The notes under the pieces: model-generated
The model's database searches: none
The model's input: only the letters and a program-made list of their open reading frames with translations
What the model was told of the DNA's origin: nothing
IMG/VR virus record: IMGVR_UViG_2609459830_000021
DNA length: 37,447 nucleotides
Strand: one strand, 5' to 3'
DNA from: a virus
Taxonomy: Duplodnaviria > Heunggongvirae > Uroviricota > Caudoviricetes
Shown here: one piece after another, positions 27,744 to 30,485 of the stretch
Layout: the number at the start of each line of letters is the position of its first letter
Position numbering within the stretch: position 1 is the stretch's first letter
Translations under genes and position numbers: made by a program

Positions 27744-27789
27744 TCGCTTTGTCAGCGACGTAGGACGAATGTCCATTGTGAAAAGAGCG
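27744..27789 (-). promoter_or_regulatory. nutR-like site: boxA-like CGCTCTTTT and P22-type boxB hairpin
   Basis: minus-strand CGCTCTTTT (27781-27789) and UCGCUGACAAAGCGA (27744-27758), same GACAA pentaloop hairpin as the nutL boxB upstream of N. Confidence 0.5.
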
Positions 27790-27796
27790 GTGTTAC

Positions 27797-27997
27797 TTAT
27801 GCAGTTGTTTTTTTGTTACTTGGGAAGGGCTTTATTTCTTCCGCATAAACGCTTCCATCAGCGTTTATAGTTAAAAAAATCTTTCGGCCTGCATGAATGG
27901 CCTTGTTAATCGCGCTTTGATATACGCCGAGATCTTTAGCCGTCTTGGTTTGCCCAAAGCGTATTGCATAATCTTTCAGGGTTATGCGTTGTTCCAT
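27797..27997 (-). CDS. cro: Cro repressor (66 aa), lambda-type
   Basis: [66 protein letters not shown] is essentially lambda Cro as recalled. Confidence 0.95.
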
Positions 27998-28023
27998 ACA
28001 ACCTCCTTAGTACATGCAACCAT

Positions 28024-28087
28024 TATCACCGCTAGAGGTAAAATAGTCAACACGCAAGGTGTTAGATATTTATCCCTTGCGGTGATA
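28024..28087. promoter_or_regulatory. OR1-OR2-OR3 operators with divergent PR/PRM
   Basis: 17-mers tatcaccgctagaggta (28024-28040), caacacgcaaggtgtta (28048-28064), tatcccttgcggtgata (28071-28087); lambda-like with single-base differences in OR1 and OR2 relative to recalled lambda sequence. Confidence 0.85.
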
Positions 28088-28097
28088 GATTTAACGT

Positions 28098-28811
28098 ATG
28101 AGCGCAAAAAAGAAACCATTAACACAAGAGCAGCTTGAGGACGCACGTCGCCTTAAAGCTATTTATGAAAAAAAGAAAAATGAACTTGGCTTATCCCAGG
28201 AATCTGTCGCAGACAAGATGGGGATGGGGCAGTCAGGTGTTGGTGCTTTATTTAATGGCATCAATGCATTAAATGCTTATAACGCAGCATTGCTTGCAAA
28301 AATTCTCAACGTTAGCGTTGAAGAATTTAGCCCTTCAATCGCCAGAGAAATCTACGAGATGTATGAAGCGGTTAGTATGCAGCCGTCACTTAGAAGTGAG
28401 TATGAGTACCCTGTTTTTTCTCATGTTCAGGCCGGGATGTTCTCGCCTGAGCTTAGAACCTTTACCAAAGGTGATGCGGAGAGATGGGTAAGCACAACCA
28501 AAAAAGCCAGTGATTCTGCATTCTGGCTTGAGGTTGAAGGTAATTCCATGACCGCGCCAACAGGATCCAAACCTAGTTTTCCTGACGGGATGTTAATTCT
28601 GGTTGACCCTGAGCAGGCTGTTGAGCCAGGTGATTTCTGCATAGCCAGACTTGGTGGTGATGAGTTTACCTTCAAGAAACTGATCAGGGATAGCGGACAG
28701 GTGTTTTTACAACCACTAAACCCGCAATATCCAATGATCCCATGCAATGAGAGTTGTTCCGTTGTGGGGAAAGTTATCGCCAGCCAGTGGCCAGAAGAGA
28801 CGTTTGGGTGA
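28098..28811 (+). CDS. cI: CI repressor (237 aa), lambda-type
   Basis: near-identical to lambda CI as recalled ([54 protein letters not shown]…). Confidence 0.95.
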
Positions 28812-28842
28812 TTGTTTTATTTTTCACGTAATAGGATGATTT

Positions 28843-29604
28843 ATGACACAGTTTCAACTTGCATTAATCGCTAGAGAAGTTGATGGAGAAGTCATCCATC
28901 TTCGCACCAAAGACGGATACATCAATGCCACCGCGATGTGCAAGTCTGCGGGGAAGCTACTTGCTGACTATACACGACTAAAAACAACACAAGATTTTTT
29001 TGATGAATTATCACGCGATATGGGGATTCCCATATCGGAGTTAATTCAATCATTTAAAGGCGGAAGAGCAGAGAATCAAGGGACTTGGGTTCATCCAGAC
29101 ATCGCAATTAATTTAGCTCAGTGGCTATCTCCAAAATTTGCAGTGCAAGTATCGAGATGGGTGCGTGAGTGGATGTCAGGTGAAAGAGCGCCTGCCGAAC
29201 TCCCTATCCACCTTAAGCGGTATATGACAAACCGAGGCAGAGTTCCTCATACGCACTTTTCTATGCTTAATGAACTGACGTTTAACTTGGTTGCGCCACT
29301 TGAACAGGCCGGATATACGCTGCCAGAAAAAATGGTCCCTGATATTTCAGAGGGTAGGGTTTTCTCGCAATGGCTCCGTGACAACCGGGGGGTTGAGCCG
29401 AAGACATTCCCAACATATAACCATGAGTACCCAGATGGCCGGACATTCCCGGTACGTCTATACCCAAACGAATATCTTGCAGATTTCAAACAACACTTCA
29501 ACGAAGTGTGGCTGCCTCAGTACGCTCCTAAATATTTTGCTGAACGAGACCAAAGGGCATTGACGTTGATTGAGAAAATCATGCTACCTGACCTTGATTC
29601 CTAA
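28843..29604 (+). CDS. KilA-N domain protein (253 aa) occupying the rexAB position downstream of cI
   Basis: N-terminal ~110 aa resembles KilA-N/APSES-type domain (…HLRTKDGYINATAMCKSAGKLLADYTRLKTTQDFFDEL…WVHPDIAINLAQWLSPKFAVQVSRWV…); C-terminal ~140 aa unassigned; 32 nt after cI stop, same strand. Confidence 0.6.
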   Translation: MTQFQLALIAREVDGEVIHLRTKDGYINATAMCKSAGKLLADYTRLKTTQDFFDELSRDMGIPISELIQSFKGGRAENQGTWVHPDIAINLAQWLSPKFAVQVSRWVREWMSGERAPAELPIHLKRYMTNRGRVPHTHFSMLNELTFNLVAPLEQAGYTLPEKMVPDISEGRVFSQWLRDNRGVEPKTFPTYNHEYPDGRTFPVRLYPNEYLADFKQHFNEVWLPQYAPKYFAERDQRALTLIEKIMLPDLDS

Positions 29605-29612
29605 ATGTTATT

Positions 29613-29635
29613 CCCGGCCACAGAGCCGGGTTTTC
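29613..29635 (+). terminator. Rho-independent terminator after KilA-N gene (t-imm-like)
   Basis: cccggccacagagccggg followed by ttttctttg. Confidence 0.6.
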
Positions 29636-29790
29636 TTTGCCTCACCCCCCCACCTAAAGACACATAACCAAATGTATTTATTGAAAAATAAATAGATACA
29701 ACTCACTAAACATCGCAATTCAGATCTCTCGATCACCTCCCAAGCCACTCAACCCTGCAAAAAATAAATCCATATAAAAAACATACAGAT

Positions 29791-29853
29791 AACCATCTGC
29801 GGTGATAAATTATCTCTGGCGGTGTTGACATAAATACCACTGGCGGTGATACT
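29791..29853 (+). promoter_or_regulatory. OL3-OL2-OL1 operators and PL promoter
   Basis: aaccatctgcggtgata, tatctctggcggtgttg, taccactggcggtgata; -35 TTGACA (29825-29830), -10 GATACT (29848-29853); matches lambda PL/OL as recalled. Confidence 0.9.
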
Positions 29854-29921
29854 AAACACATCAGCAGGACGCACTACTCACCAGGGCGGTGAATATACAA
29901 CGATTCAAATATGAATCTACG

Positions 29922-29936
29922 GCGCTGACAAAGCGC
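29922..29936 (+). promoter_or_regulatory. nutL boxB hairpin, P22-type (GCGCUGACAAAGCGC)
   Basis: 5-bp stem with GACAA pentaloop in PL leader; no clear boxA found by eye. Confidence 0.55.
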
Positions 29937-30101
29937 AATAACCAAAGTGAACTTTGGGGTGTGGTGAAGGGTTCATGGACGGGAATATGTCGCACGTAAA
30001 GCGGCGAGGCCTGCGGGACTATTGCCGAATTGAAGTAGGCCGAAACAGGTCGAAATGGGTCTCCCACCTACCACACCACCAAAGTTCATCAGGAGGTCTA
30101 T

Positions 30102-30485
30102 ATGACACGCAGAACTCAGTTCAAAGGCAATTCACGTTCTCGTCGTCGTGAGCGTTTAAAGGCAAAGGCATTAGCTAACGGCGTGCTGGCCCGCGAAGAA
30201 GCAATAAGTTCAGAAGTATTACACCGCCCTACTCTAAGCAGAGCGCAGATTCAGGCTAAAGGTACTCACGAAACGCCTGAGCGCATAGAAGACGCTAAGC
30301 CAATTAAGTTCATGGCACAGGACGTGATCTGGCAACAGAAAGAATACAGACGCAATCTGGAGCGAGCAGCCATTGTGTACGCGAATGAGTTTGGACATAA
30401 GCAACCAGAAACTGGTGTATGTCTTCCAAACGTAGCCATTTACGCGGCAGGCTACCGGAAATCAAAACAACTGACGGCGAGGTGA
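30102..30485 (+). CDS. N: N-type antiterminator, P22 gene 24-like (127 aa)
   Basis: N-terminal arginine-rich motif NSRSRRRERLKAKA; C-terminus …LPNVAIYAAGYRKSKQLTAR parallels P22 gp24 …LPGVALYAAGHRKSKQITAR (from memory); AGGAGG RBS. Confidence 0.75.
   Translation: MTRRTQFKGNSRSRRRERLKAKALANGVLAREEAISSEVLHRPTLSRAQIQAKGTHETPERIEDAKPIKFMAQDVIWQQKEYRRNLERAAIVYANEFGHKQPETGVCLPNVAIYAAGYRKSKQLTAR

Follow-up and report, generated by a model that had tools for sequence, protein, structure and literature searches.

A lambda repressor switch combined with H-19B/933W-type N antitermination in the early control region of a prophage

The window analysed here is a stretch of 37,447 nucleotides from a virus of the Caudoviricetes (IMG/VR record IMGVR_UViG_2609459830_000021). 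Positions 27,744 to 30,485 contain the repressor genes cI and cro, a gene of the BstA family, the antiterminator gene N and two nut sites. All features named in a preliminary description of this region were found at the positions given there. The features, with window coordinates, strand and basis of identification, are as follows.

27744-27758, minus strand: nutR boxB hairpin UCGCU-GACAA-AGCGA (TCGCTgacaaAGCGA); folds as predicted, conserved
27763-27774, minus strand: nutR spacer hairpin GGAC-AUUC-GUCC; predicted fold
27781-27789, minus strand: nutR boxA-like element CGCTCTTTT / CGCUCUUUU; one mismatch to the 8-nt boxA core GCTCTTTA
27797-27997, minus strand: cro, product identical to lambda Cro at 64/66 positions (97%); alignment to lambda
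27803-27805: right joint, inside cro codon 65; three-way alignment and blastn blocks
28050-28022, minus strand: promoter PR; promoter scan
28024-28040, 28048-28064 and 28071-28087: operators OR1, OR2 and OR3; comparison with the lambda operators
28098-28811, plus strand: cI, product identical to the lambda CI repressor at 235/237 positions (99.2%); alignment to lambda
28843-29604, plus strand: BstA-family (KilA-N) abortive-infection gene in the rexAB slot; phrog_6287, PADLOC and Pfam
29613-29639, plus strand: Timm-like intrinsic terminator closing the cI operon; the lambda-like sequence starts again here
29791-29853, plus strand: operators OL3, OL2, OL1 and promoter PL; identical to lambda, promoter scan
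29825-29830 and 29848-29853, plus strand: -35 and -10 boxes of PL; promoter scan
29859-29875: left joint, in the 17-nt CATCAGCAGGACGCACT that opens the PL transcript; alignment and blastn blocks
29878-29892, plus strand: hairpin UCACC-AGGGC-GGUGA upstream of nutL; predicted fold, conservation
29902-29917, plus strand: nutL spacer hairpin GAUUCA-AAUA-UGAAUC; predicted fold, conservation
29922-29936, plus strand: nutL boxB hairpin GCGCU-GACAA-AGCGC (GCGCTgacaaAGCGC); folds as predicted, conserved
29947-30089, plus strand: long stem in the N leader (5' arm 29947-29966, 3' arm 30070-30089); fold z-score -4.4
30102-30485, plus strand: N antiterminator, 127 aa; Pfam N_peptide PF25694 (E 2.1e-15) and phrog_271 (E 3e-39)

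The cI and cro genes, OR, OL and PL had been described as lambda-like, and the alignments bear this out. In addition to the near-identical repressor and Cro proteins, all six 17-bp operators are present with the lambda sequences and spacing. Four of them, including OR3, are identical to their lambda counterparts, and a single mismatch is seen in each of OR1 and OR2. The hairpin homologous to the candidate terminator is annotated as Timm in the record of mEp234. Judging from these sequences, immunity to lambda is to be expected of the prophage, even though its backbone is Stx-phage-like. The rexAB slot is occupied by an ORF that matches phrog_6287 over its full length (E 1.8e-82), the PADLOC BstA profile (E 2.5e-20) and Pfam KilA-N. 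It combines the N-terminal KilA-N domain with the BstA C-terminal region and is situated just downstream of the repressor gene, as described for BstA (PMC8585504). This gene is cargo, lying outside both the immunity and the N modules.

Blocks of blastn similarity to lambda cover positions 27783-28812 (96.7%) and 29613-29892, and the blocks of similarity to 933W cover 27378-27804 and 29861-30485 (99.4%). The clean joints claimed for this region could be mapped at the base level, to cro codon 65 and to the 17-nt start of the PL transcript. At the right joint the sequence is lambda-like toward cI and H-19B/933W-like toward nutR and cII, and the same joint is observed in HK97 and mEp234. The core of the left joint, CAGCAGGACGC, is conserved also in 933W and P22, and roughly 1000 E. 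coli prophages have one or the other side of this joint in common with the window. The segment from nutR to cII is only 83.5% identical to 933W, and thus the immediate donor of the right arm was not 933W itself. No nucleotide similarity to P22 was observed in the N and nut segments, except for 68 nt at the 3' end of N.

The N gene starts 242 nt past the PL start. The matches to PF25694 and phrog_271, together with the arginine-rich motif (ARM) 12-RSRRRER-18, identify its product as a lambdoid N protein; a PDB sequence search with this protein produced no meaningful match, so that a solved structure for this type of N is not available. It is 100% identical to N of 933W (127/127), is orthologous to N of H-19B with 124/127 identical residues (97.6%), and is 98.4% identical to N of HK97 and mEp234. 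For H-19B N with nutR, N-dependent readthrough has been demonstrated experimentally (PMC3526286). In that work the ARM mutations R3H, S11F, R15C/P and R18P abolished antitermination at nutR/tR1, and processive antitermination was lost when the C terminus was deleted; all of these residues are identical in the window protein. The N-nut system of H-19B and 933W has been described by Neely and Friedman (1998, 2000) and by the Sen laboratory (PMC3526286, PMC4499122).

The boxB stem-loops are situated where they are found in lambdoid N/nut systems, just downstream of PL and of cro. Their conservation in homologues, on which the preliminary description was made to depend, holds in 933W, H-19B, HK97 and the IMG/VR loci. 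The nutL boxB is identical in these three phages, in nutL of P22, and in all IMG/VR loci with this N; the nutR boxB is identical in 933W and H-19B and does not vary in those IMG/VR loci in which a nutR could be located. Both are invariant across 80 IMG/VR loci carrying the window-type N, and no close relatives were found that keep N and lose the GACAA hairpins. In diverged N homologues the position of the boxB hairpin is retained, and double-sided compensatory changes occur at stem pairs 1-3 (the pairs were tabulated by hand; the MAFFT alignment of boxB did not gap the tetraloops correctly).

The nut sites have long spacers with dyad symmetries in addition to the GACAA boxB, as in the H-19B/933W module, and both are nearly identical in sequence to those of H-19B and 933W. 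The nutR spacer hairpin is kept in 933W, H-19B, HK97, VT2-Sa, POCJ13 and Salmonella phages. The nutR boxA-like sequence, already recognized in the preliminary description, differs from the core GCTCTTTA by one mismatch and is located 22 nt upstream of the nutR boxB. In 933W and H-19B it has the form CGCTATTTT, and the site is polymorphic among the loci with the window-type N. Further downstream on the left side, the long stem of the N leader has a variable interior, stops 1 nt before the Shine-Dalgarno box AGGAGG (30091-30096), and is preserved with compensatory changes in nine other phages, lambda and P22 among them. No Rfam family was found over the nut sites or the N leader, either in the whole window at gathering thresholds or in 27300-30600 at E <= 1. 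The sole Rfam match was a chance-level AgvB at an oop-like hairpin.

Among the relatives, the type of the boxB loop follows the type of the N ARM in 236/236 loci, with nutL and nutR switching together. Where N has the longer ARM (RRRERLKAKALANG), the boxBs of both nut sites are always G(A/U)CAA pentaloops; where its ARM is shorter by 7 residues (RRRERRAALQ or RRRARRANLQ), the loop is always a plain GAAA tetraloop. Outside the ARM and boxB, homology between the loop types is retained in N, in the nut spacers and in the leader; SPN9CC and g341c differ essentially only in the ARM and boxB. One tentative explanation, to which we would not yet commit ourselves, is that in the wider N family the RNA-recognition specificity is exchanged as a tiny two-part cassette consisting of the ARM and boxB. 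No paper describing such an exchange was found, although no targeted literature search was made.

We are confident that these genes and sites make up the early control region of a Stx-phage-like (933W/POCJ13-type) prophage, consisting of two functionally independent modules of different ancestry. As assigned by sequence similarity, the first is the lambda immunity cassette, represented by cro-PR/OR-PRM-cI and, separately, by Timm-OL-PL. The second is the N antitermination module of the H-19B/933W type, comprising the N gene and its two sites, nutL on the transcript from PL and nutR on that from PR. The sequence identities, joints, folds, conservation and co-variation that bear on this assignment are direct observations.

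The boxA of the GCUCUUUA type, located upstream of each boxB in lambdoid N/nut systems, is missing at nutL. Across the 60 nt that separate the PL start from the nutL boxB, no 8-mer comes closer to the boxA core than 4/8 mismatches, and 62% of shuffled leaders contain a better one; the earlier remark that no boxA is obvious at nutL was correct. Some GenBank records annotate a putative nutL boxA, CGCACTACT or CGCATTACT, which we rejected as being no better than chance. The candidate CGCACTACT at 29870-29878 has 4/8 mismatches in the boxA core, and an almost identical sequence (CGCACTGAC) occupies this place in lambda without being the lambda boxA. In the relatives VT2-Sa and POCJ13, GCTCTTTAA is found at the homologous position, and the 3' arm of the 29878-29892 hairpin sits where these phages carry the boxA GCUCUUUAA. 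One possibility is that nutL is defective, N acts via nutR only, and the left operon has no N-dependent antitermination. However, this is very unlikely, as the nutL boxB and both hairpins upstream of it are invariant in 933W, H-19B, HK97 and about 80 IMG/VR loci. Moreover, the nutL boxB loop switches together with the N ARM type in the relatives, which implies selection for N binding. The gap at nutL departs from the lambda/P22 form and is typical of the H-19B type, and boxA is dispensable for H-19B N. Since nutL has no boxA and the boxA of nutR is variable, the system is probably little dependent on NusB/S10, by analogy with H-19B, whose N protein is reported to work with a reduced host-factor requirement.

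Another possibility is that N and the nut sites derive from P22 (gp24 type), which would make the locus a hybrid of lambda and P22. Indeed, the GACAA loop at both nut sites had been called P22-type, and the 15-mer of the nutL boxB coincides with the P22 nutL boxB. The earlier claim that N resembles gp24 stands for two parts of the protein: the last 29 residues are 69% identical to gp24 (E 7e-10), and both proteins have the ARM core GN(A/S)(K/R)(T/S)RR(H/R)ER. N also aligns better to gp24 than to lambda N (24% identity, E 0.005), in line with the same claim. However, the similarity to gp24 is confined to these two parts; N is not orthologous to gp24 over its length, as the global identity is 28.7%, compared to 97.6-100% for N of H-19B and 933W, and its ARM region is 7 residues longer than that of gp24. 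At the DNA level, the surroundings of nutL and nutR show no similarity to P22, and the P22 nutR boxB (CCGCCgacaaCGCGG) has a different stem. In P22 each boxB is preceded, at a distance of 11-12 nt, by the canonical boxA GCTCTTTA; the window spacers are instead long (22 nt and more) and contain hairpins, with no boxA at nutL, which is the H-19B/933W architecture. The label "P22-type" does not hold for N, and derivation of the module from P22 is highly improbable.

Finally, the suggestion that the two GACAA hairpins have nothing to do with N, and either arose by chance or are terminator-like, can be dismissed as having practically no probability: the nutR region as a whole folds no better than shuffles (z -0.74), but exactly two GACAA hairpins with 5-bp stems occur on both strands of the 37 kb window, compared to 0.05 per window expected from mononucleotide shuffles (two were reached in 1/300 shuffles), and these two lie at the canonical positions just past PL and just past cro, both on the transcribed strand, have no T-run after them, and demonstrate perfect conservation, compensatory stem changes and co-variation with the ARM.

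For the combination of the lambda immunity cassette with the H-19B/933W-type N module, the following scheme may be proposed. Its binding and antitermination steps are modelled on the work on H-19B, lambda and P22, with H-19B as the model for the binding of N to boxB and for independence of host factors. CI and Cro would bind the six operators on DNA and determine the immunity specificity of lambda. N would be the first gene transcribed from PL. The central part of N may recruit NusA to the nut spacer. The C-terminal part of about 30 residues, common to N and P22 gp24, would contact RNA polymerase. The polymerase would read through the Rho-dependent terminator tR1 after nutR and then through later terminators. 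In this way cII, the replication genes and Q would be switched on in the rightward direction, and the genes for recombination and kil in the leftward direction. [quoted passage not shown] It may have arisen by a swap of the imm-lambda cassette into an H-19B-like backbone, or the reverse, via one crossover at the end of cro and one in the 16 nt that open the PL transcript, both of them short conserved linkers.

This mosaic is not new. The lambda cI, cro, OR, OL and PL with the window-type N, nutL and nutR are already visible in the records of the lambda-immunity wild phages HK97, mEp234 and HK106 (AF069529, EF120460, EF120461) and of PhiR5_2 (PV340546), and the GenBank records of the first three annotate both nut sites. 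PhiR5_2 is 99.6% identical to the window over 27300-30600, including the BstA-like gene; a literature search for this phage found nothing relevant. The hybrid with lambda cI and cro was observed in 20 of the 71 IMG/VR loci carrying the window-type N, the remaining loci having the same N/nut module with several other PL/immunity types. It is also present in 99 of 5426 complete E. coli genomes.

As a discovery this is minor, being textbook lambdoid modular evolution, in which modules for immunity and for antitermination are reshuffled by exchange at short conserved linkers. For annotation, the N/nut system of the prophage should be labelled as H-19B/933W type with likely reduced Nus-factor dependence, and not as P22 type. 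If the two ARM/loop types are truly non-cross-reacting, they would form a natural matched pair of specificities. Such a pair could help to find out how recognition of an extruded base by an arginine-rich helix differs from recognition of a canonical GNRA loop.

Compared with known systems, the spacer hairpins, the GACAA boxBs and the ends of the N-leader stem are the same as in H-19B and 933W. There is one base different from H-19B in nutL, in a hairpin loop, and one in nutR, in boxA; the interior of the N-leader stem is unlike that of H-19B and equal to that of 933W. However, 933W and H-19B have their own cI, cro and operators, and the window cI is only 23% identical to that of 933W. Lambda shares with the window the promoters and operators, the layouts PL-nutL-leader stem-N and PR-cro-nutR-tR1-cII, a similar hairpin upstream of nutL, the boxC-like GGGGUGUG, and the leader stem. 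The residues HRPTLSR of the window N resemble NRPILSL of lambda N, a segment that binds NusA. On the other hand, the ARM of the window N differs from that of lambda in having no Trp, and the lambda boxB loop is GAAGA/GAAAA with the fourth base out, whereas the window loop is GACAA. In the structure of the P22 N peptide with boxB (PMC12550061), the GACAA loop adopts a GNRA-like fold from which the C is extruded. P22 has the GACAA pentaloop in common with both nut sites of the window, but its nut sites have no spacer hairpins and its immunity region is unrelated. HK97, mEp234, HK106 and PhiR5_2 have the same joints as the window. The cargo between cI and Timm differs, being gp48/49 in HK97, hicAB in mEp234 and HK106, and the bstA-like gene in the window, and the backbone of HK97 is of the siphovirus HK97 type, whereas that of the window is 933W/POCJ13-like. 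The combination of the lambda repressor switch with N/nut of the Shiga-toxin phages H-19B and 933W is an ordinary, already documented module swap.

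The region belongs to a temperate lambdoid prophage and contains its early control elements; the left operon is oriented on the plus strand in the window. The genes and elements are:

27362-27658, minus strand: cII
between cII and cro, minus strand: nutR
27758-27744, minus strand: nutR boxB
27763-27774, minus strand: nutR spacer hairpin GGAC-AUUC-GUCC (fold), after boxA, followed by CUACG and boxB
27797-27997, minus strand: cro
between cro and cI: PR, OR and PRM
28098-28811, plus strand: cI
28843-29604, plus strand: gene of a KilA-N protein, 253 aa
29613-29630: terminator, between the KilA-N gene and OL/PL
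29791-29853: OL/PL
29878-29892, plus strand: nutL hairpin UCACC-AGGGC-GGUGA (fold)
29902-29917, plus strand: nutL spacer hairpin GAUUCA-AAUA-UGAAUC (fold), followed by CUACG and boxB
29922-29936, plus strand: nutL boxB
29937-30101, plus strand: structured N leader, 165 nt, between nutL and N
30102-30485, plus strand: N

The lambda-like character of the repressor, cro, OR and OL/PL, suggested in the preliminary description, is borne out. CI is identical to the lambda protein in 235 of 237 positions and Cro in 64 of 66; OL1-3 and OR3 have exactly the lambda sequence, and OR1 and OR2 are each one base off. In a promoter scan the two best sites of the region are PL and PR. CI and Cro would control OL and OR just as in lambda.

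Lambda-like blocks (27783-28812, 96.7% identity, and 29613-29892) alternate with blocks similar to the Shiga-toxin phage 933W (27378-27804 and 29861-30485), and the mosaic joint proposed inside the immunity region resolves into two mapped joints. The right one, followed base by base, cuts codon 65 of cro, between 27803 and 27805; the gene ends with ACT GCA TAA in the window, ACA GCA TAA in lambda and GCT GCA TAA in 933W. The left one is within CATCAGCAGGACGCACT (29859-29875), with which the PL transcript begins; this stretch is identical in lambda and the Shiga-toxin phage H-19B, and its core CAGCAGGACGC is conserved in 933W and P22 too. Joints at the same positions were observed in HK97 and mEp234. 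A third discontinuity extends from the cI stop (28811) to the terminator (29613). The slot contains rexAB in lambda, gp48/49 in HK97 and hicAB in mEp234, whereas in the window it is occupied by the KilA-N ORF (28843-29604, plus strand), encoding a full-length protein of the abortive-infection family BstA (phrog_6287, E 1.8e-82; PADLOC BstA, E 2.5e-20). Its position downstream of cI matches that published for BstA (PMC8585504). Between cI and the Timm terminator, this slot is a cargo hot spot for defence and toxin-antitoxin genes. A cognate anti-BstA (aba) DNA element would be expected close to the start of the BstA-family gene.

The N protein had been called P22-type. It is indeed not closer to lambda N than to P22 gp24: the only lambda match is weak, local and N-terminal (E 0.005; 23.7% global identity), whereas gp24 aligns significantly, within the last 29 residues (69%, E 7e-10). 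The GACAA boxB, this C-terminal tail and the core GN(A/S)(K/R)(T/S)RR(H/R)ER of the arginine-rich motif (ARM) are shared by the window N/nut module and that of P22. However, global identity to gp24 is 28.7%, and the label is thus wrong for N: the protein is identical to 933W N (127/127), nearly so to H-19B N (124/127), and 98.4% identical to the N proteins of HK97, mEp234 and HK106. On the DNA level, identity to 933W is 99.4% across 29861-30485 and 83.5% in the nutR-to-cII segment 27378-27804; the one P22-like stretch in the compared region is 68 nt long, at the N 3' end. The preliminary interpretation is partly right: the N/nut module is of the H-19B/933W type, which has its GACAA boxB and the tail of N in common with P22.

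The GACAA hairpins reported at both nut sites are present exactly there: GCGCTgacaaAGCGC in nutL (29922-29936, plus strand) and TCGCTgacaaAGCGA in nutR (27758-27744, minus strand). They are the only GACAA-loop hairpins with 5-bp stems on either strand of the 37,447 bases; shuffled windows contain on average 0.05, two being reached in one of 300 shuffles. For both segments the hairpin is the fold of lowest energy. As had been noticed, a boxA-like sequence occurs at nutR and none is obvious at nutL. At nutR, CGCTCTTTT (27789-27781, minus strand), 22 nt upstream of boxB, departs from the 8-nt boxA core at one position; from the PL start to the nutL boxB, a stretch of 60 nt, no site does better than 4/8 mismatches, and 62% of shuffled leaders score better than this.

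The mEp234 record has a "putative nutL boxA", CGCACTACT (window 29870-29878, plus strand), and the nutL feature annotated for 933W opens with the same string. Public records give CGCACTACT or CGCATTACT as the nutL start or as a putative boxA (window 29870-29878; comparison loci L001, 3215-3223, and L006, 4269-4277). Neither is accepted here as boxA: the core match is at chance level, and the string belongs to the conserved beginning of PL transcripts, with the lambda counterpart CGCACTGAC. In the nutL alignment, GCTCTTTAA of VT2-Sa and POCJ13 stands where the H-19B type has GGTGAATAT, which forms the 3' side of its first hairpin; this shows that boxA was replaced by the hairpin arm.

Both boxBs are invariant across 80 IMG/VR loci with window-type N; six apparent misses are loci with a longer leader insert that contain the same boxB. 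Among N homologues that have diverged to between 86% and 35% identity, the hairpin keeps its place after CUACG in both transcripts, and stem pairs 1-3 carry double-sided compensatory changes. The hairpins are conserved in homologues, and this, together with the loop and ARM pattern below and published work on H-19B and P22, is evidence that they function as nut sites. The loop type follows the ARM type without exception in 236 phylogenetically non-independent loci, both nut sites switching together.

ARM types and boxB loops (loci L014-L253 from IMG/VR, and L008-L012)
Longer ARM, RRRERLK... (RRRERLKAKALANG): G(A/U)CAA pentaloop, GACAA, or GUCAA in SPN9CC-type nutL; 118 loci, 67 distinct leader+N sequences
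ARM shorter by 7 residues, RRR(E/A)RRA.LQ (RRRERRAALQ or RRRARRANLQ): GAAA tetraloop; 118 loci, 90 distinct leader+N sequences

Despite the kinship of the loci, the pair SPN9CC/g341c is still telling for a co-switch: the leader, spacers, and central and C-terminal parts of N are in common, and the ARM and both boxBs differ. At the loop-closing position, the SPN9CC nutL and the P22 nutR each show a C.C juxtaposition.

From boxB to N the leader RNA forms a long stem (z -4.4; arms 29947-29966 and 30070-30089), and 1 nt separates its 3' arm from the Shine-Dalgarno sequence. Both ends of the stem persist, with compensatory changes, in H-19B, SPN9CC, g341c, SI8, VT2-Sa, POCJ13, P22 and lambda, and the interior is exchanged for inserts of unrelated sequence, about 60-200 nt long. 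The lambda equivalent is the RNase III site governing N translation, and the window stem is probably its counterpart.

Several other elements were observed. Four nucleotides past the N stop codon starts a 237-aa ORF (30489-31202, plus strand; phrog_2539, unknown function) with a CxxC...CxxC zinc-ribbon segment of weak likeness to endonuclease VII, HNH and Lar-like proteins; homologues directly 3' of N occur in PhiR5_2 and POCJ13. Between nutR and cII, the hairpin AUGCG-UUUCCA-CGCAU (27698-27713, minus strand) is conserved in 933W, H-19B, HK97, VT2-Sa and POCJ13, and Salmonella relatives have the same stem type (AUGCG/CGCAU) with another loop; it may be part of tR1 or of the cII-leader region. 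Antisense to the cII 3' end, at the place of the lambda oop RNA terminator, there is a strong hairpin with a T-run (27354-27415, plus strand), whose only Rfam match, to the prophage anti-sRNA AgvB, is at chance level (20.7 bits, E 0.97). Gathering-level Rfam matches elsewhere in the window, all on the minus strand, are two tandem sets of C4 antisense RNA, isrK and c4-a1b1 targets (19408-19606 and 20993-21191), sok antitoxin RNA (23056-23230) and STnc100 (16061-16266).

By analogy, we infer the following mechanism for the window N. Upon induction or infection, PL would produce a transcript with nutL and N; the ARM would bind boxB of nutL and nutR; N with NusA would, via the N C-terminal region, make RNA polymerase resistant to termination; and this polymerase would read through tR1 and then later terminators. 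In H-19B N, the ARM mutations R3H, S11F, R15C/P and R18P abolish antitermination at nutR/tR1, C-terminal deletions impair processive antitermination, and footprints of N and NusA cover boxB and the spacer, with boxA left free (PMC3526286). All the mutated ARM residues are identical in the window N. In the P22 N peptide-boxB structure, the C of GACAA is looped out of a GNRA-like fold and touches a His and an Arg of the peptide (PMC12550061); the aligned window residues are Arg and Lys. The boxA is absent at nutL, and at nutR it varies among relatives and is lacking in Salmonella ones, which would fit a reduced role of NusB and S10.

Dyad symmetries reportedly occur in H-19B-type nut spacers, and boxA, NusB and S10 are said to be dispensable. 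The nut architecture here agrees with what Neely & Friedman 2000 call, in their title, "alternative NUT RNA structures". The H-19B nutL differs by one base, in the spacer-hairpin loop, and the H-19B and 933W nutR by one base in boxA (CGCTATTTT instead of CGCTCTTTT). In contrast, both P22 boxBs are preceded at 11-12 nt by GCTCTTTA, the lambda ones at 7-8 nt by CGCTCTTA, and neither phage has a spacer hairpin.

The mosaic is already known and well documented, and not new. PhiR5_2 (PV340546) is 99.6% identical over 27300-30600, and outside this region the window most resembles PhiR5_2 and 933W/POCJ13-type (Sepvirinae) phages; the N/nut module thus agrees with the backbone, which leaves the lambda cassette as the odd part. 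Of 5426 complete E. coli genomes, 99 contain a nearly full-length match to a query across the lambda OL/PL-to-nutL junction. Lambda cI and cro accompany window-type N in 20 of the 71 IMG/VR loci with enough upstream sequence; the remaining loci have several other PL/immunity types, joined at the same conserved CA(G/A)CAGGAC(G/A)C. The same arrangement of lambda immunity and N is found in HK97, HK106 and mEp234, and in the mEp234 record the operators, promoters, nutL and nutR are annotated.
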